Part shown: positions 3,418-64,000 of the stretch, piece after piece
Numbering within the stretch: position 1 is the stretch's first letter
How the letters are laid out: the number at the start of each line of letters is the position of its first letter
Source of the DNA: a phage
Length of the DNA: 64,000 nucleotides
Assembly (NCBI GenBank): GCA_018093385.1
Contig: GCA_018093385.1_4808.1
Reading direction: 5' to 3' (one strand)
Position numbers and translations under genes: made by a program
Notes under the pieces: model-generated
Database searches by the model: none
Told to the model about the DNA's origin: nothing
Seen by the model: only the letters and a program-made list of their open reading frames with translations

Positions 3418-3759
3418 TTAATTTCTTTTGAGAGGAATATGACGGTGGCTGCCATTATTTGGTTTAATAATGAGCATAAAAACGATTAGAAAGATGATGG
3501 CTGATATACTTAATTCAATCAGCGCGGCTTGAGATATAGATTGATCTTCATGATACTGCTTTTGCATTTCTGCTTTCTTCTGAGCGCAAACTTCAGGTGA
3601 TATGTAATCGCCTTTTGAGTTGCCATAATAAATTTCGCCATTCTCAGAAATAAGCCTGCCGCAAATATCCGTTTCAGCCTGTGCGCTTGACATCATAATA
3701 ACAGTTCCGATGATAGCGGCGATAGTCCAGATTAACAGTTGTGATAAAGTGTTGTTCAT
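3418..3759 (-). CDS. small membrane protein (likely start at internal Met, MNNTLSQ...)
   Basis: Strong RBS AAGAGG 5 nt upstream of ATG at 3759; N-terminal hydrophobic segment plus C-terminal hydrophobic segment; track ORF extends to 3849. Confidence 0.45.
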   Translation of the reverse strand: MNNTLSQLLIWTIAAIIGTVIMMSSAQAETDICGRLISENGEIYYGNSKGDYISPEVCAQKKAEMQKQYHEDQSISQAALIELSISAIIFLIVFMLIIKPNNGSHRHIPLKRN

Positions 3760-4792: not shown

Positions 4793-6253
4793 ATGAATAA
4801 AATATTAACACATAATTGGAAATTCATGTACCAGTTGAATCCTGCTTTAAAAGAAGTCTGGAAGACAAAAGCGCGATACAAAGTGATATACGGCGGTCGT
4901 GCATCTTCCAAATCGCACGATGCCGCTGGTTTTGCTATTTATTTGGCGGCAAACTTCAAATTAAAATTCCTTTGCGTTCGACAATTCCAGAACAAGATTT
5001 CTGAATCTGTATATACTCTATTAAAAGACAAAATAGAGATTTCTGATTTTAAAGATGAGTTCAATTTATTAAAGAACTCTATCGAACACAAAAGAACTAA
5101 ATCTGAATTTCTATTTTATGGTATCGCACGTAACGTTGATGAAATCAAATCAACAGAAGGCGTTGATGTTCTTTGGCTGGAAGAAGCGCACGCGCTTACT
5201 GAAGAACAGTGGGACATTATTGAGCCGACAATACGTAAAGAAGGGTCCGAAATATGGATCATCTTTAACCCTGATGAAGAGGCCGATTTCGTATATCAAA
5301 ACTTTGTTATGCGACCGCCGAAGAATGCCATTGTTAAAAAGATAAACTGGCAAGACAATCCATTTTTGTCGCAAACGATGCTGGACGTTATTGCAGGCAT
5401 GTACGAGCGTGACCCGAAAAAGGCAGAGCACGTTTATGGCGGCGTGCCGAAGACTGGCGGCGACAAATCTGTAATCAACCGCGCATTCGTTAAGGCCGCG
5501 CTTAATCTACACAAGCACCCCACGCTGGGCTGGAGTTTGTCAGGGTCTAACCGTATAGGCTTTGACGTAGCGGACGATGGCGACGACCTTAACGCCACTG
5601 CATTCGTCACAGGAAACGTATTGCGCGGCATCAAGACGTGGGAAGGCCTGGAAGATGAATTGTTGAAATCGGCAAGCGGAGTTTGGAAAGATGCGCTTAC
5701 ATTCGGCGCTTCCATAACTTATGACGCCATCGGTGTCGGCGCTTTTGCTGGTTCAAAATTTGATGAACTAAACGAGTATGCAATACATGAAAATCCATCA
5801 TTTCCAAGAATCGAATTTAATGCGTTCAACGCGCAAGGGTCTGTTGATGATCCTGATGACGTTTTTCTTGAATTACCACACGTTGAAATACTCAATAAAG
5901 ACCATTTCGCAAACATAAAAGCGCAAAAATGGACTGAAATTGCAGAGAGATTCAGAAAGACATACGAATATGCAACTGGGCAAGCCGTATATCCGACTGA
6001 TGAATTGATTTCAATCGACACCGATGGTATACCGGAACTTGGGATTCCAGCTTGGACTACTGAAGAGATTGAGACGTTTCTTTTTGAGATGTCAGCGCCG
6101 CGCAAGGATACATCTGTTCTTGGTAAGTTCAAAGTTGAATCTAAAAAGGACATGGCAAAGCGCGGAGTCAAATCACCTAACAAAGCGGACGCAGCAATCA
6201 TGGCATTGATGAAACCAATCGTTGCAGCATCCGGCTTCTTCTCTAACCTTTAA
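4793..6253 (+). CDS. terL: terminase large subunit
   Basis: Walker A-like YGGRASSKS, Walker B-like VLWLEEAH, C-terminal nuclease-like region; 486 aa; precedes portal. Confidence 0.85.
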   Translation: MNKILTHNWKFMYQLNPALKEVWKTKARYKVIYGGRASSKSHDAAGFAIYLAANFKLKFLCVRQFQNKISESVYTLLKDKIEISDFKDEFNLLKNSIEHKRTKSEFLFYGIARNVDEIKSTEGVDVLWLEEAHALTEEQWDIIEPTIRKEGSEIWIIFNPDEEADFVYQNFVMRPPKNAIVKKINWQDNPFLSQTMLDVIAGMYERDPKKAEHVYGGVPKTGGDKSVINRAFVKAALNLHKHPTLGWSLSGSNRIGFDVADDGDDLNATAFVTGNVLRGIKTWEGLEDELLKSASGVWKDALTFGASITYDAIGVGAFAGSKFDELNEYAIHENPSFPRIEFNAFNAQGSVDDPDDVFLELPHVEILNKDHFANIKAQKWTEIAERFRKTYEYATGQAVYPTDELISIDTDGIPELGIPAWTTEEIETFLFEMSAPRKDTSVLGKFKVESKKDMAKRGVKSPNKADAAIMALMKPIVAASGFFSNL

Positions 6254-11237: not shown

Positions 11238-11375
11238 ATGCAAAAGATTATTCAGTCACGTTATGTTAAAGTGCGAAATATTAATTGCAACTCTTTGCTT
11301 TCTTGGAAATGGGCTGTTTACGACTCGATGTTAATTGGCGTTTTAGTTGCAGGAGTGCTATTTAATATTCACTGA
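11238..11375 (+). CDS. small hydrophobic protein (45 aa)
   Basis: RBS AGAGGAAG upstream of ATG; C-terminal hydrophobic stretch; below track size cutoff. Confidence 0.3.
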   Translation: MQKIIQSRYVKVRNINCNSLLSWKWAVYDSMLIGVLVAGVLFNIH

Positions 11376-11399
11376 ATTCATCGGCAAAGGATTGCCGCG

Positions 11400-11700
11400 A
11401 GTTTTATACGTATAATGACGTATCATCCGTATCAAGTAAGTTGTTGTTTTCAAAAGAATCTTACGGATGATACGGATGATACGCATTGCCGCCGTACTAT
11501 ATAGGAATTCAAATAAATTAATTTAAAATTATATATCTAATTTAATTTTATTTTTTTATAAACTCTTATATATGAAAAGTATCCGTATCATCCGTATCAT
11601 CCGTAGCACACCAGTGATAGCGCGGCTTATACACCGATACGGATAAAAATACGCCTCATTTTATCCGTATCATCCGTATCACACTAATAAAGGCGCGGCT
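11400..11700. repeat. iteron cluster flanking an AT-rich core
   Basis: 9-bp unit TACGGATGA / TCATCCGTA in 2-3 tandem copies at about 11421-11436, 11461-11482, 11581-11608, 11634-11643, 11662-11683 in both orientations around ~75 bp of nearly pure A/T (11500-11576); palindrome TATACGTATA at 11406-11415. Confidence 0.6.
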
Positions 11701-11790
11701 ATATCGGTCGTTATACATATTCAAACCATAATTATTGTTTGCCTAAGTTTTTTTCATTAGATATAATACACAATACTTATTTGAGGGTGG

Positions 11791-13211: not shown

Positions 13212-13829
13212 ATGACTTTCCAAACTAGTGTAGGCCGTCAATATACAACTGGCTTTCCTGGCGACATCGTTCGCGACGGCCCACAGCGTGGGAAGCCAGG
13301 CCGAATCGTTAGCGCCAACGACGGTGCAAACGTAAACGCCATCAGCCGTGTGTTTGGTTTTAAAGCTGACGTATCATTAATGGGTACTGGCCAAACCAAA
13401 ACCTTGGGCGCGCAGGACTTTGAAGTTGAACTGGGCGGCACCAATTACTATGGCATCCTTGGCAACAGCAAGCGTTACGCTCTGTATGGCAACTCTACTG
13501 GTCCTTTGGGCGCCAGCATGGTTCTGCCTCAATATAGCGAAGGCGAGTTCTACGATATGTGCACGGGCCTCGTAGTTGAAGTATTCAACCCAAGCACCAG
13601 TCCGCAGACGCTGAACTACGGCGACCTGCTCGCTTATGTACCTAAAGGCATTTCCAGCGGTAACAACCCGAACAACTTGCCTATCGGTGCAATTATCGCC
13701 TACACTGGCTCACTGCCAACTGGCATGGTTGCCATTCCAGGCGGTATCGTGATTGACCCGACTGCTATTGCCCTTTCCGGCCCAAGCGTCCAGTCTTCCA
13801 CTTATACCATTGTACAATTGACTCGTTAA
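13212..13829 (+). CDS. putative capsid accessory/decoration protein
   Basis: ATG 13212 just after scaffold stop; sits between scaffold and major capsid genes. Confidence 0.4.
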   Translation: MTFQTSVGRQYTTGFPGDIVRDGPQRGKPGRIVSANDGANVNAISRVFGFKADVSLMGTGQTKTLGAQDFEVELGGTNYYGILGNSKRYALYGNSTGPLGASMVLPQYSEGEFYDMCTGLVVEVFNPSTSPQTLNYGDLLAYVPKGISSGNNPNNLPIGAIIAYTGSLPTGMVAIPGGIVIDPTAIALSGPSVQSSTYTIVQLTR

Positions 13830-13843
13830 TAGGCAGGTGAATA

Positions 13844-14983
13844 ATGACTCGCATTAGCCAAACACACTCTCGCCTCCCAGCGAGCAAGGTGCGCCCTTTT
13901 GATATGCAATCCGTCACTGACGCGGCTGTTTCCCAGCTTGCTCGTATCGGTATTGTGTTTGATTCCGCGATTGTGCGTGATCAAATTGAGCACTTAAACC
14001 GTGCAGGCGCTTTTCGCGTAGGTGACGCCGCGTTTACTGCGCCGCAGACTACTCCGTCAATCCCGACCCCGTTGCAATTCCTGCAGCAATGGCTGCCTGG
14101 CTTCGTCAAAATCATGACCGCTGCTCGTAAAATCGACGAGCTGGTTGGTATTGATACCGTTGGTCAGTGGGAAGATGCGGAAATCGTTCAGGGTATCGTT
14201 GAACCAGCTGGCACCGCAGTTGAATATGGTGATTTCACCTCTATTCCTCTGGCAAGCTGGAACGTAAACTTTGAACGTCGTTCTATCGTTCGTGGCGAAA
14301 TGGGCATGGCAGTTGGTATGCTGGAAGAAGGCCGCGCGTCTGCTATGCGTCTGAACTCCGCAGAAACCAAGCGCCAGCAGGCTGCTGTATCTCTGGAAAT
14401 CATGCGTAACGCAATCGGCTTCTATGGTTGGTACAACGGGAACAACCGCACATTCGGCTTCCTGAATGATCCAAACCTGCCAGCAGCGATGACTTCCCAC
14501 ACCACTTCCGGCTGGGCTACTGCGACTTTCCAACAGGTAACTGCAGACATCCGTTTGATGGTTCGTCAAATTCGTGTGAACTCTCAGGACCAGATTGATC
14601 CAGAGAAAGTTGACATGACTCTGGCGCTGCCGACTAACTCTATCGATTGGCTGTCCAACACCACTGACTTCGGTATTTCTGTACGTGACTGGATCACCCA
14701 GACTTATCCGAAGATGAAGATCAAATCTGCACCGGAACTCAACGGCGCACTTGGCAGTGACCCGACTTTCTTGAACGTGGCATACCTGTACGCTGATCAC
14801 ATCGATTCCTCAATTGATGGTTCAAGCGATGATGGTTCCGTATTCAGTCAGCTGGTTCAAACCAAGTTCATGACTCTGGGCGTTGAAAAGCGTGCTAAGA
14901 GCTACGTTGAAGACTACGCAAACGCAACAGCAGGCGTTCTGCTCAAGCGTCCGTTCGCAGTCGTCCGTATGACTGGTATTTAA
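13844..14983 (+). CDS. major capsid protein
   Basis: 379 aa ORF with strong RBS GGCAGGTGA, directly downstream of scaffold genes, followed by stem-loop; size and synteny typical. Confidence 0.6.
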
Positions 14984-51092: not shown

Positions 51093-52175
51093 ATGGCTAG
51101 TTTAAGAGAAGAAGCAAAAATAATTGAAGAGTTTTTAACAGAACTCCAAAGAGGCATCCCAGAAGATGAGCGCGTCATGACGGTGTTTGCTCCTGAAGCA
51201 ACGGTGCAGACTGATGAGCGCGGCAAGAAGATCAACAGCAGCTTCTGGCCTAAGCCTTGGAAGTTGGGCAAGCCGCTCATGCAGCACCAAAACGGCTATG
51301 CGTGCATCAGTTCAATGCGTAAGGCTCCCAACCCAAAGACGGGTGAGATGCGATACTGGCGTACAGAGTCAGCCTTTGGTCACGGCATGGCGATGATGGT
51401 CGACGACATCGGTCACGGTAAAGGGTCCAAAGGCGATTTAGATTTGGAATTCTTTTTTGAGCGACTGAAGCCGACTGTCATCGTCGAGACTTCACCGAAC
51501 AATCACCAGCTTTGGTACTTCTTTAAAGAACCGATTGACCATCTTATTCAGTTCAAAGCGTTCCTTGGGTCTTTCGTTAACATGGTACTCAAGAAGGGCG
51601 GCGACAACACGATTAAAGACGTAACGCGCGTGGGTCGTGTTCCTGGGTGCATCAACAACAAGCGTGTGACTCACGACGGCCCCTATAAATATGTCGATGA
51701 GAACGGCGACCCGTTCCGCTGCCGACTTGTCCATGCAGACTACTCATTGCGCTACACCATCGAAGACATTTGTCAGGCATTTGGCTTTCACGTCGTCATG
51801 CCGCAAAAGCGTGAAATTCAAATTGACGTTGATGAATACAAATACGACGCTGTTTGGTATAAGATAGCCCAGCAAATCCTTGCGCGCAATAAGATGGGCG
51901 AGGGGTCTGATGGCGATGTTGTTGAAAACATGTCGGGCAAGTGCCGCATCATCTGTCCTTGGGGTGAAGAGCATACCAACGGCGACCCGTATGGCGCTTA
52001 CTTTCGCGGCCCTATCCCTGGTGCAGAACATGAGTTTGTGTTCGGTTGCGCTCACGACTGTCACCGGAAAGGGGAAGGCAAGAAAGGTTGGACTGCTTTT
52101 GTTGAAGCAATCGTCATGCCTTATATTGAGAATCAACTTGACATGATAAATCGTCGTGCAGGTGGCATAAAATAG
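51093..52175 (+). CDS. putative primase/replication initiation protein
   Basis: ETSPNNHQLWYFF resembles RepB-prime/Prim-Pol type motifs; C-terminal Cys/His cluster (CRIICPWGEEH ... CAHDCH). Confidence 0.4.
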   Translation: MASLREEAKIIEEFLTELQRGIPEDERVMTVFAPEATVQTDERGKKINSSFWPKPWKLGKPLMQHQNGYACISSMRKAPNPKTGEMRYWRTESAFGHGMAMMVDDIGHGKGSKGDLDLEFFFERLKPTVIVETSPNNHQLWYFFKEPIDHLIQFKAFLGSFVNMVLKKGGDNTIKDVTRVGRVPGCINNKRVTHDGPYKYVDENGDPFRCRLVHADYSLRYTIEDICQAFGFHVVMPQKREIQIDVDEYKYDAVWYKIAQQILARNKMGEGSDGDVVENMSGKCRIICPWGEEHTNGDPYGAYFRGPIPGAEHEFVFGCAHDCHRKGEGKKGWTAFVEAIVMPYIENQLDMINRRAGGIK

Positions 52176-53485: not shown

Positions 53486-55156
53486 ATGTCAATTAATAAT
53501 GACAATCTTCCAGAGGATACAGGTGATGAATTTGGTGCAATCTTTGACGAAATTCAAGATGCAGGCGTTTCGGAAGAAATGCAGGCAGCAGAGCAGCAAG
53601 GCACCAGAGCTAAAATCAGCCTTCAACATAAAGCTGTTGAAAAAGATTCAGAGCGCATGGAATGCTACGGTGAAGAAGACTTGGTTGAAAGAGCACGCTT
53701 GCTCGCCTCACTTCAGGTAATCAAGTTCCCTCACTACAAGCCTACCAAAGATGACTTCGTTCTACAGGCAGACCGGACGAGTGACATGAACCGTTATGCG
53801 GTGTTCGACGCGTTGTTTGATAAGGGAAGTGGCGTCGTTCCATTCCCTCACAAAGATACTTTTCGTGGGCGCTTAGTCGACCATCGCGGCGAAACATTCA
53901 CCGACCGTACTTTGGAAGTCACAGAGATAGTTGCCGCTGTCGACGCAGCAGGATTGTCCAACCCAAACTCACGTCAGGTCGCTCAATCCTATAAGGAATG
54001 GGCCATGCGTTATCAGCGCGACGACCTGATGGACTTCTTCTACAAGAAGCTGCCTGAATGGGACGGTACTGCGCGCATCGAGAAATACCTTATCGAGCTA
54101 TTCCGACCGTTCGATACAGAGTTAAACCGACAAATCGGTGTGTATTTTTGGCTATCGCTCTACAACCGCCTGACCAACCCTGGCTGTCAAGCGCCAATCT
54201 CCATCGCGCTCATCGGCGGCCAGAATGCAGGGAAGAGTTATTTTAGCAAGCTGCTTTGCGAAGCTATTATGAACGACCGCCACGCAACACCGATTCCGTT
54301 GAACTTAGCCGCGCAAAACTTCAACCCGTTCTTGCGAGCTATTACGGGTCGCTCAATTATCGCGAACGTTGGCGAGATGACAGGCTTTAAAAAGGCCGAC
54401 ATCGAAAACATGAAAGCATTCCTGACTAAGACGGAAGATGACCTGGACTTCAAATTTGAAGATACGCAGGTTAAACCACGCCAGTGGATTGCTATCATGG
54501 ACGGCAACGAATACGCAGGCATGCAGCGTGATGACACGGGCAACCGTCGTGTGTACCCTATCTTTGTTGGCCAACTCGCCGACAAGGACGGGCAACCGAA
54601 CTGGTCGAAAGATTTCCAAGCTGACCTTTCCACTTTGAAAGAAGACGTTTGGCAGTTGATGGCTGAGTGCGCTGCATGGATGGAGAAGCACGGCGAAGCA
54701 GGTTACAATGCATTTGTTGGTGAAACATCTCGCATGCTTACTGAGTTTAGTAAGAACGAAATGGAACGTGCGCGCGGCGTTATTCGTGATGAGATGGTGG
54801 ACAACGACCTTGTTGAAGTCGTCATCACCGCGCCTTATGACCGACATCACAGCGGACGCTGGCACATCACCAGTGGTGCTATTGCTATGGGATTCAGAGC
54901 GAAGTGTGGCAAGTCGCCTTTCTCTCGTACCCTTGCGCCGCACATGTCGAAGCTTGGTTTTGAGCCTGCAACCTATCGCAACCAGCGCGGGTACTTTACG
55001 CCGCTGATTAAGAATGAAGCAGGAGAATACATTTCTGATTTGATGACCATCTTAGCGTATCTTATCCGCGATGAGTCTGACCCTGAAGATATTGAATTCT
55101 TGAAGAAGGTTATTGAGCGTAAACGTTCTTTGGGAAGAGATAAGGATGAATTCTGA
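53486..55156 (+). CDS. P-loop NTPase, VirE/primase-associated helicase-like
   Basis: Walker A GGQNAGKS; 556 aa; location next to primase-like gene. Confidence 0.5.
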   Translation: MSINNDNLPEDTGDEFGAIFDEIQDAGVSEEMQAAEQQGTRAKISLQHKAVEKDSERMECYGEEDLVERARLLASLQVIKFPHYKPTKDDFVLQADRTSDMNRYAVFDALFDKGSGVVPFPHKDTFRGRLVDHRGETFTDRTLEVTEIVAAVDAAGLSNPNSRQVAQSYKEWAMRYQRDDLMDFFYKKLPEWDGTARIEKYLIELFRPFDTELNRQIGVYFWLSLYNRLTNPGCQAPISIALIGGQNAGKSYFSKLLCEAIMNDRHATPIPLNLAAQNFNPFLRAITGRSIIANVGEMTGFKKADIENMKAFLTKTEDDLDFKFEDTQVKPRQWIAIMDGNEYAGMQRDDTGNRRVYPIFVGQLADKDGQPNWSKDFQADLSTLKEDVWQLMAECAAWMEKHGEAGYNAFVGETSRMLTEFSKNEMERARGVIRDEMVDNDLVEVVITAPYDRHHSGRWHITSGAIAMGFRAKCGKSPFSRTLAPHMSKLGFEPATYRNQRGYFTPLIKNEAGEYISDLMTILAYLIRDESDPEDIEFLKKVIERKRSLGRDKDEF

Positions 55157-55803
55157 TGAATAAAGCAATCAACATCGCTAAATTCTTTCAACATCTTGGT
55201 GAACTGAACAAAGAAAGTGACGTTCACGGCGAAGAAATGAACCGAATGATCTCAACCGTGTTGCGCGGCTTTGGTTATGATAAGGACTCAATCACTTGCA
55301 AGCGCACAAAGCTTGTCGATGAGTCTTATCTTTACTACGTAGAGCTGCGCATTGGGAAAGATGTGATGATCATTGACCCTAAACTGGAAGGGGCGCACTG
55401 TTTTGGCGCTCACCCTCGTGCGAGTGAATTCAAGGGTCGCGGTCGCAACCGAATCCAGAAGCTTGATGATGCAGGCGACTTGAACATTGCAATGTTCCTC
55501 AAAGAGTTCCTTGCTCTTCCAAAGGTTGCATCATCCACGGGCCGCGATGACCCTTGCAAGATTGGCTTCAGAACTAAAGATTTGCGCAATGCGCTACGCA
55601 AGAAGGGATTTGTGCCTTCTTATGACAACGTCGCCGCGCTGATGGCTTCAATGGAGGAAGCTGAAGCGATGGACAAGGTGCGCGGCTATTTCCTGAATAC
55701 AGGCTTCACCATGTATGAATGGCACACGAAGGGATTGACTGTCGCCGACTTCATCTATTCATTAGAGCAGAAGTATGTACGCAATATGCAGGCCACAGGA
55801 TAA
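55156..55803 (+). CDS. hypothetical protein
   Basis: ORF in track. Confidence 0.45.
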   Translation: MNKAINIAKFFQHLGELNKESDVHGEEMNRMISTVLRGFGYDKDSITCKRTKLVDESYLYYVELRIGKDVMIIDPKLEGAHCFGAHPRASEFKGRGRNRIQKLDDAGDLNIAMFLKEFLALPKVASSTGRDDPCKIGFRTKDLRNALRKKGFVPSYDNVAALMASMEEAEAMDKVRGYFLNTGFTMYEWHTKGLTVADFIYSLEQKYVRNMQATG

Positions 55804-58294: not shown

Positions 58295-58300
58295 ATATCA

Positions 58301-58333
58301 AAAAGGTGAGCTAAATGCTTGCCTTTTCTTTTA
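58301..58333 (+). terminator. rho-independent terminator (copy 1 of repeated cassette)
   Basis: AAGGUGAGC-UAAAU-GCUUGCCUU hairpin (two G-U pairs) plus U-run. Confidence 0.5.
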
Positions 58334-59835: not shown

Positions 59836-59839
59836 TTCA

Positions 59840-59873
59840 AAAAGGTGAGCTAAATGCTTGCCTTTTTATTTGC
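59840..59873 (+). terminator. rho-independent terminator (copy 2 of repeated cassette)
   Basis: 30-bp identity with 58301-58330 including hairpin and U-run. Confidence 0.5.
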
Positions 59874-63089: not shown

Positions 63090-63538
63090 TGGGCAAACGG
63101 CTTATCGCCGCTGGTTGGGCCATACCGAAGTGGGGCCATCGTGCGCATTACTTTGACGAAGGAGAAGTGCAAAGCCTTTGCGGTCGCGCAACGTATTTCG
63201 GTGATGAGCGCGTCAGCGGCGATTATATCGACTCGCTTTTAGGCAAAGGTGATTGCAAGAAGTGCCAGAATATATTAAGGGATATTCTCACGCAAAAAGG
63301 ATTGCTTGAGCTTGATGAATCGGAAGAAGTAATTGAGCTTAAGCTGGAAGCCAATCACCTTATTAATATGTTCAAGAACTATTACGCAACTAATATGCGA
63401 TCAAAGATGCGTAAGAAAGTAATAGAAGAGGTACTTACTTACAATCCGTTAAGGATGAATAAAACTAAATTGAAGAAATTTAACATAATGGTAAGGAAAG
63501 AATTTAAAAGGCTAGGAGTGAAGAATTTTATATTTTAA
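63086..63538 (+). CDS. hypothetical protein
   Basis: ORF in track, probable GTG start; last gene before noncoding region. Confidence 0.4.
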   Translation: MMGKRLIAAGWAIPKWGHRAHYFDEGEVQSLCGRATYFGDERVSGDYIDSLLGKGDCKKCQNILRDILTQKGLLELDESEEVIELKLEANHLINMFKNYYATNMRSKMRKKVIEEVLTYNPLRMNKTKLKKFNIMVRKEFKRLGVKNFIF

Positions 63539-63554
63539 TAGTGATTAATGTTAA

Positions 63555-63580
63555 GAGGGCCGAATGGCCCTTTTGTTTGC
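63555..63580 (+). terminator. rho-independent terminator
   Basis: GGGCC-GAAT-GGCCC hairpin followed by TTTTGTTTG. Confidence 0.65.
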
Positions 63581-63599
63581 CTGTTGTTTGTGAGGCTTT

Positions 63600-63830
63600 A
63601 TTATCGGATAAAGCGATTGATTTGTGTAAATCTATTAGAGGGTCGTGGGCAGTGAGTATTGTGACGTGAATTTTGTGTCTTGAATATGTGTGCGAATCTG
63701 GAAGATTATTGTACTGTGGTGCTGTGGGATTGGAGAGGGAATCACTAGGAATTGGAGCGTGTACCGTGGTGTGTGGTCCTGTAGGCTGCGCCGTCTATGG
63801 GATTGCCGCTTGAAATTAAAAAGGAGATAT
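63600..63830. other. noncoding G+T-rich, C-depleted tract
   Basis: Long stretch dominated by GTG/TGT/TGG words with very few C on plus strand; no ORF. Confidence 0.4.
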
Positions 63831-63859
63831 AGTTAGCTGGCTAACCTTACGCATAGAAT

Positions 63860-63975
63860 TTAAGCGTATAATGACGTAAGATTTGGACCTATCCGTAGTT
63901 CACTCCACACACTTCTATGGTGCGCCGCGACTGGTTTCAGTGGTACATCTTACGGATGATACGGATGATACGCGT
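63860..63975. repeat. second copy of iteron/promoter-like module
   Basis: GCGTATAATGACGTA and 27-bp ATCTTACGGATGATACGGATGATACGC identical to 11458-11484; palindrome GTTAGC-TG-GCTAAC at about 63831-63846. Confidence 0.55.
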
Positions 63976-64000
63976 CGCCGCTATACTTTATACAACTTTG

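Follow-up and report, generated by a model that had tools for sequence, protein, structure and literature searches.

The window analysed here is a stretch of 64,000 nt of phage DNA, and the phage is a Wifcevirus myophage infecting E. coli. Two related non-coding modules lie within it, subsequently named M1 and M2. M1 (11376-11790, no strand assigned) is the entire non-coding gap between a 45-codon open reading frame (ORF, 11238-11375) and the head protease gene. M2 begins at about 63860 and is cut by the window end, past which it continues for about 250 nt; it follows the last small early gene (the last convincing gene, ending at 63538) and a G/T-rich non-coding tract (63580-63830, plus strand). 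The 45-codon ORF upstream of M1 is conserved, with equivalents of 48–51 codons in other lineages; it has no Pfam or PHROG match and is followed by a terminator-like hairpin (11382-11397). The G/T-rich tract to the left of M2 (∼250 nt) differs in sequence between the Wifcevirus subgroups and is mirrored by a C/A-rich tract on the right, outside the window (for example 5960-6130 in the Bas101 record L001). The same pattern of G/T and C/A tracts is found in the phages Pa193 and Hera, and none surrounds M1. The small ORFs 0089-0091 annotated in this tract in Bas101 are probably spurious.

A sequence-only reading of the window had described the two regions as diverged copies of one module about 52.5 kb apart, with related flanks carrying an indel, and had taken them for a duplicate rather than an assembly repeat. 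These claims held up throughout. The sequence ATCTTACGGATGATACGGATGATACGC at 63947-63973 matches 11458-11484 at 27 of 27 positions, as had been noted, and the match grows to 46 nt at 89% identity (repeat family D2). The shorter match reported at about 63864-63878 and 11408-11422 sits in a 20-nt block, TTTA(T/A)(A/G)CGTATAATGACGTA, at 11403-11422 and 63859-63878, which is 90% identical (repeat family D17). The spacings between copies are 52,456 and 52,489 nt. The two blocks are separated by 55 nt in copy 1 but by 88 nt in copy 2, which confirms the indel of 33 nt as real. Allowing at most one mismatch, GGATGATACGG occurs nine times in the 64-kb window against 0.57 expected, a number reached in none of 100 shuffles, and eight of the nine copies fall within 11418-11675 or 63954-63973. 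When M1 was searched against the rest of the window, M2 was the sole match (E = 1.4e-9). We supplied the missing half of M2 from the relative Bas101, since this phage is 97.6% identical across the last 421 nt of the window. The homology continues past the window end, a point that the earlier reading had proposed to check: M1 and the completed M2 align with 68% identity over 193 nt (E = 3e-21). Owing to the quasi-palindromic structure of each module, a second alignment is obtained with one copy inverted (67% over 205 nt, E = 2e-19). An identity of only ∼68% over ∼200 nt argues against an assembly duplication, and a long exact duplication derived from a terminally redundant genome was ruled out, as the alignment contains indels and M1 is internal, 16 kb from the terminal repeat (DTR). 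Both regions are present at fixed syntenic positions in 29 of 29 matching phage records, all of them Wifcevirus. The M1/M2 repeat is real, ancient, under selection and paired.

Both modules carry 9-mers of the sequence GATGATACG or CGTATCATC in outer and inner arrays, which are in opposite orientation on either side of an AT-rich centre, so that the inner arrays face each other. The 9-mers flank the locally most AT-rich ∼80–100 bp of each module (centres of 80–110 bp with 84–91% A+T), and M1 and M2 both show the layout of SaPI-type origins with at least two opposed iterons per side of the centre. In M1, the outer-left iterons CGTATAATG, CGTATCATC and CGTATCAAG occupy 11409-11436 (minus orientation) and the inner-left iterons 11458-11484 (plus), with GATGATACG at 11466 and 11475. 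They are followed by the AT-rich centre at 11499-11578, which with 91% A+T is the most AT-rich 80 nt of the window, and by the inner-right iterons at 11578-11607 (minus), with CGTATCATC at 11584 and 11593. GCCGC boxes lie on the left at 11394-11398 and 11488-11492. The right flank (11622-11699) bears GCGGC at 11622-11626 and 11695-11699, a copy of GATACGGAT at 11636-11644 and outer-right iterons at 11666 and 11675. The inner-right iterons form a 25-nt inverted repeat of 96% identity with 11462-11486 (repeat family I3), and the single strand of M1 folds into a long hairpin (z = -5.2). Searches for known RNA families gave only sub-threshold chance matches, those to miRNA precursors arising because of the long hairpin. 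When the 9-mers and the centre were read by eye as DnaA boxes or an IHF site, the best match was 7 of 9, to TTATCCACA.

The visible half of M2 is built in the same way. Degenerate outer-left iterons occupy 63859-63898 (minus) and consist of CGTATAATG-ACGTAAGAT and, at 63889-63898, CTATCCGTAG. The inner-left array at 63947-63973 (plus) reads ATCT-TACGGATGA-TACGGATGA-TACGC, with GATGATACG at 63955 and 63964, and none of the three sequence variants of the M2 left half has lost it. Positions 63974-64000 hold a GCCGC box (63977-63981) and the first part of the AT-rich centre, which contains 84% A+T; the inferred terminus is 19 nt beyond the end of the window. Further GCCGC boxes on the left side are found at 63805-63809 and 63924-63928. 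The name ‘iteron/promoter module’ given by the sequence-only reading was apt in its first half, as the short repeats behave like iterons. Its second half, which referred to the CGTATAATG-ACGTAAGAT unit, was rejected: GCGTATAATGACGTA is not called at 11408-11422 or 63864-63878 as a sigma-70 promoter, which would require conserved -35 and -10 hexamers spaced by 16–18 nt. The site reads CGTATCATGACGTATCAT in the Wifcevirus subgroup of Bas98, where the ‘TATAAT’ box is CGTATCATG (TATAAT changed to TATCAT), and it is further diverged in the WFC subgroup; it is therefore a degenerate pair of the 9-mer. Strong sigma-70-like promoters for the next gene lie ∼130–300 nt downstream of each module. The promoter downstream of M1, TTGCCT-17-TATAAT at 11739-11767 (plus), precedes the protease-scaffold-capsid genes and is invariant across the genomes compared; the one ahead of terS on the M2 side is a near-consensus TTGAAT-17-TATAAT.

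The GCCGC and GCGGC boxes follow a mirrored layout. In 12 modules from 6 lineages we counted 23 GCCGC and 1 GCGGC on the left, but 0 and 32, respectively, on the right (Fisher 8e-15, a value that is indicative only because the modules are related to one another). This layout holds whatever the lineage-specific iteron. In Pbunavirus the boxes are located in the loop of inverted hairpins, AAGCCT-N9-AGGCTT, and a clear hairpin context is found there only. The boxes may be priming sites for a RepB-type primase, which is described below.

Comparison across relatives showed which parts of the modules are kept. Over about 420 nt, M1 hardly varies among six genomes that represent both Wifcevirus subgroups. 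The right half of M2 is conserved within Wifcevirus, and the left half exists in three sequence variants, each with 9-mer copies, a GCCGCG box and an invariant AATTAACTCC/ATTTT (here and below, the slash marks the DTR boundary). In five lineages (Wifcevirus, two metagenomic lineages, Pbunavirus and Myosmarvirus) the modules occur as a pair at the same two syntenic sites, one ahead of terS and the other ahead of the head protease gene. Every paired lineage has its own repeat, common to both copies. Within Wifcevirus this is GATGATACG, in the window M1 and the Bas101 M2 as well as in Bas98, whose M1 and M2 are 69% identical over 235 nt (E = 1e-24). The metagenomic lineages carry ATGATACGT (records L023/L025; 62% over 216 nt, E = 1e-11) and TCTTGCGGAT (L024/L026; 72% over 243 nt, E = 6e-30). 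The repeat is GGTAATTTGG in Pbunavirus Pa193 (66% over 355 nt, E = 3e-33) and ACTTTTCG in Myosmarvirus Hera (70% over 263 nt, E = 1e-30). In Luteibacter phage Pluto a single module, whose repeat is TTTAGTACG, directly follows the helicase gene, and a search of this genome for a second (M1) paralogue found none. Lineages that differ in their iterons conserve the AT-rich core that contains the cut motif. A conserved core combined with iterons that turn over fits a model with two readers, in which the initiator would read the iterons and the end-forming machinery would read the core.

The position of the virion end in relatives places it inside M2. Four Wifcevirus records (WFH, WFC, Mansfield and Ro157lw) start with ATTTT(G/A)A, at ends that are reported or apparent. 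A terminal repeat of about 3.7 kb has been described for WFH and WFC (PMC6563267), and a DTR of 3,673 bp was determined for Mansfield by PhageTerm (PMC6753283). In the right-hand copy of WFH and WFC, ATTTT(G/A)A is preceded by AATTAACTCC. Taken from these relatives, the left boundary of the DTR is AATTAACTCC/ATTTTGAA, 19 nt past the window end, in M2 and just upstream of terS. In the Myosmarvirus phages MTx and MyoSmar (DTRs of 3,566 and 3,559 bp) the boundary falls in the M2 equivalent, at the left edge of the AT-rich core. As in pac/cos-type sites, a virion end thus lies within the site itself in four Wifcevirus and two Myosmarvirus records, and since the DTR boundaries of relatives lie inside M2, this module appears also to be the end-forming site. 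The cut motif is absent from M1 in every lineage examined. The earlier suggestion of packaging or terminal-repeat-related sequences is consequently borne out for M2, through the DTR boundary of its relatives, and not for M1. At the other end of the repeat, WFH and Mansfield have the same right boundary, GGGTCTTT/TGGTGCG. No third module is present there, and the site has neither 9-mers nor similarity to the left boundary. Because the right and left boundaries are unrelated in sequence, the two ends of the DTR are probably made by different signals. The right boundary is G/T-rich (GGGCATGGGTCTTT/TGGTGCG) and lies at 3701/3702 in WFH (L004) and 3673/3674 in Mansfield (L013), two phages that were analysed independently. 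Pbunavirus has been reported as circularly permuted, and a fixed end may therefore not be general.

The first gene to the right of M2 encodes TerS, as judged by a phmmer match to the E217 TerS structure 7UXE (7e-34); it is annotated as TerS in Mansfield too. A Pfam search with this protein gave no match, and the TerS PHROG has no assigned function. We also observed that Chi sites cluster just right of M2, and that their orientation (CCACCAGC) makes them active against RecBCD travelling rightward from an entry point at the M2 centre. WFH, Bas98, Bas101 and ECML-117 contain exactly one Chi each, about 1,005 nt into the DTR (position 1008 in WFH, L004; 10037 in Bas98, L006; 6851 in Bas101, L001). 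The metagenomic record L024 has six within 1.2 kb (13236-14439) versus one in the other 20 kb, Hera has four within 1.1 kb (L020, 19737-20833) and none elsewhere in 35 kb, and Pa193 has two within 40 nt (L017, 340 and 379). There is no Chi beside M1. The oriented cluster suggests a protected double-strand end at M2, beside which such sites would be expected.

Two replication genes are located on the plus strand of the window. The gene at 51093-52175 encodes a RepB-type DNA primase (Pfam RepB primase, 1e-36) and lies upstream of a gene for a VapE-like SF3 helicase (53486-55156), a SaPI Rep-like protein that is our candidate for the iteron-binding initiator. The helicase contains the Pfam VapE-like domain PF05272 (1.6e-28). 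Its AlphaFold (AF2) model has a pLDDT of 86, and the best fold match in Foldseek is SaPI1 Rep (7PDS, E = 2e-16 over 480 columns). The C-terminus is predicted to be a winged helix on the basis of a helix-strand-helix-helix-strand-strand unit that the model shows at about residues 436–505. The phage thus encodes a candidate cognate initiator of the SaPI type, in which an SF3 ATPase is joined to a C-terminal winged helix, the latter by predicted topology only. About 190 homologues of the helicase were found. The C-terminal domain, at about residues 430–556, diverges much faster than the ATPase domain, with identities of 55 versus 84%, 33 versus 65% and 15 versus 59% in three comparisons, and this fast divergence parallels the turnover of the iterons. 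TerS diverges evenly along its length and has no fast-evolving segment. M2 is found directly downstream of the helicase gene in Pa193 (Pbunavirus), Hera (Myosmarvirus) and Pluto. Wifcevirus differs in that an insert of about 25 small ORFs (8.7 kb) parts M2 from the helicase gene, which in the window ends at 55156. M1 adjoins neither the helicase gene nor terS. Two further features were observed in this region. A 215-aa ORF (55156-55803) that overlaps the helicase stop codon with its own start gave no Pfam match; it is shared by L023 and L024 but has no counterpart after the helicase gene of Pa193, Hera or Pluto, and it may encode an accessory replication protein. Among the early small genes there is a 35-nt direct repeat of 94% identity (TCAAAAAGGTGAGCTAAATGCTTGCCTTTT..., 58298-58332 and 59837-59871), possibly a terminator or regulatory element present twice.

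We favour, with moderate confidence and by analogy to known origins, the interpretation that M1 and M2 are paralogous paired replication origins for the Rep-like helicase and that M2 doubles as an end-forming site. This reading is based on the fact that the phage encodes a RepB-type primase and a SaPI-Rep-like helicase and that M2 directly follows the helicase gene in three genera. The self-loading SF3 helicase would read the iterons via its C-terminal winged helix, load on both sides of the AT-rich centre and then melt it; the RepB-type primase would then prime, possibly at the GCGGC boxes. In its second role M2 would supply the left end of the virion DNA, the start of the ∼3.7 kb DTR, by a cut at AATTAACTCC/ATTTTGAA in the AT-rich centre. 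M1 is probably an origin only, because the iterons are kept and the cut motif is absent. The sequence-only reading had offered paired origins, one regulator coordinating distant operons, and packaging or terminal-repeat-related sequences; of these, paired origins appear best supported for both copies, a judgement about which we are evenly balanced, and one regulator is possible but without specific support.

A close parallel is provided by the origins of SaPIs, which follow a rule of pri, rep and then ori immediately downstream of rep; the iterons are divided equally between the two flanks of an AT-rich centre, with opposed orientations, and are recognised by the C-terminal winged helix (PMC9371898). 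The phage shares with them a primase gene upstream of the helicase gene, the combination of SF3 ATPase and (predicted here) C-terminal winged helix, and short iterons in two opposed sets around an AT-rich centre; in Pbunavirus, Myosmarvirus and Pluto the putative origin also comes right after the helicase gene. However, the phage iterons comprise 9–11 nt rather than the 5–6 nt of SaPIs, there are two copies per genome, neither Wifcevirus copy abuts the helicase gene, and the mirrored GCCGC/GCGGC boxes as well as the virion end in one copy are additional features. Two distant iteron-bearing loci served by one initiator are known from phage P4 (ori and crr, with the alpha primase-helicase) and from SPP1 (oriL and oriR, with G38P), where oriR is located among late genes; these loci resemble the arrangement described here but have no sequence relationship to M1 and M2. 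In the RSF1010 oriV the RepB′ primase acts at the strand-specific sites ssiA and ssiB, which are in mirror orientation around the origin. The phage primase belongs to the RepB family and the mirrored strand-specific elements are like ssiA/ssiB, although the GCGGC boxes are pentamers or hexamers with clear hairpin context in Pbunavirus only. Cumulative GC-skew in the Pbunavirus phage Banzai has its minima in the replication-gene region and not at the M1/M2 equivalents (PMC12390725). This objection is weak because the skew here follows the direction of transcription. We rejected GC skew as an origin marker: it is uninformative, as it tracks gene orientation and shows no inflection at M1.

The terminus in M2 and the adjacent terS fit the 9-mers as terminase recognition elements equally well, which counts against the origin reading. 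Both modules could then be TerS recognition arrays of the pac/cos type, in which 9-mers to the left and right of the cleavage region would bind a decameric TerS ring. The active site would be M2, and M1 would be a cleavage-incompetent paralogue that acts as decoy, as loading site or in regulating the head genes. This is the principal alternative, and we consider it unlikely. It would account for the DTR boundary between the inner 9-mer arrays, for terS as the next gene in Wifcevirus, Pbunavirus and Myosmarvirus, for the difference between M1 and M2 exactly at the cut motif and for the Chi clusters that mark M2 as a DNA end. Repeats around a central cut recall P1 pac and the pacL-pacC-pacR sites of SPP1, and these sites, like the R sites of lambda cosB, are bound by TerS or PacA. 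Like M2, they present short repeats on both sides of the end cut beside the small-terminase gene; unlike the modules described here, with their uncut second copy and a phage that makes a 3.7 kb exact DTR, they are single-copy. We know of no precedent for a second, invariant and uncut pac site. In Pluto the single module abuts the helicase gene and is 3.3 kb (7 ORFs) away from terS, and the right boundary of the DTR has nothing in common with the left. TerS also lacks a fast-evolving segment that could match the turnover of the iterons, whereas the C-terminal domain of the helicase has one. Furthermore, the nearest studied TerS, that of E217 and a homologue of the protein encoded here, showed no appreciable DNA binding in vitro (review PMC9611059).

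Very improbable, in our judgement, is a role of the modules as arrays of operators through which a phage transcription factor would co-regulate the terS and the protease-scaffold-capsid promoters, the position of the terminus being coincidental. The near-consensus sigma-70 promoters 130–300 nt after each module would suit such operators, and lineage-specific repeats imply a phage-encoded binding protein. However, other late operons (terL, portal, tail) have no module, and M1 matches nothing else in the window apart from M2. The repeats lie far upstream of the promoters, around the AT-rich core and not at the -35 and -10 boxes, no candidate regulator was found, and the mirrored GCCGC/GCGGC boxes and the terminus would be left unexplained. 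Hardly credible, and from the sequence comparison apparently refuted in effect, is an origin of the similarity solely in gene conversion of functionless intergenic regions or in an assembly artefact: within-genome paralogues are indeed more alike than orthologues across genera, a pattern expected from conversion, but the copies are only 62–72% identical with many indels, M1 is nearly invariant in a genus whose genomes differ by about 6–10%, motifs are retained while the surrounding sequence turns over, and the pair is found in all 29 Wifcevirus records plus four further lineages, with M1 16 kb away from the DTR.

Returning to the paired origins, it is conceivable, though quite doubtful, that origin and genome end are one mechanism, in which M2 firing in concatemers would re-replicate 3.7 kb rightward to a stop signal at GGGTCTTT/TGGTGCG. 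Re-replication from M2 would thereby duplicate the terminal repeat, the left end would be set by the point of origin opening or priming instead of a symmetric terminase cut, and M1 would be an identical origin that lacks the end-forming core. If true, this would explain why the DTR boundaries have no common sequence and why, in two genera, the boundary falls within the AT-rich centre of M2 or at its edge.

An earlier description of the M1/M2 modules was not found in the searchable literature, most subscription literature being outside this search, and existing annotation consists only of DTR coordinates in some records. Therapy with Pbunavirus-like myophages (Pbunavirus, Wifcevirus, Myosmarvirus and many uncultured relatives) is widely practised or proposed; in these phages the replication origins are unmapped and the packaging mode is disputed. 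The iteron pair, together with a named candidate initiator and a defined cut motif, offers directly testable origin and end-forming sites for this group. Such candidate sites may be of use in genome rebooting and engineering, for example in deciding where not to split or insert, and the lineage-specific iterons provide a natural series for assigning residues of the predicted winged helix to the repeats.
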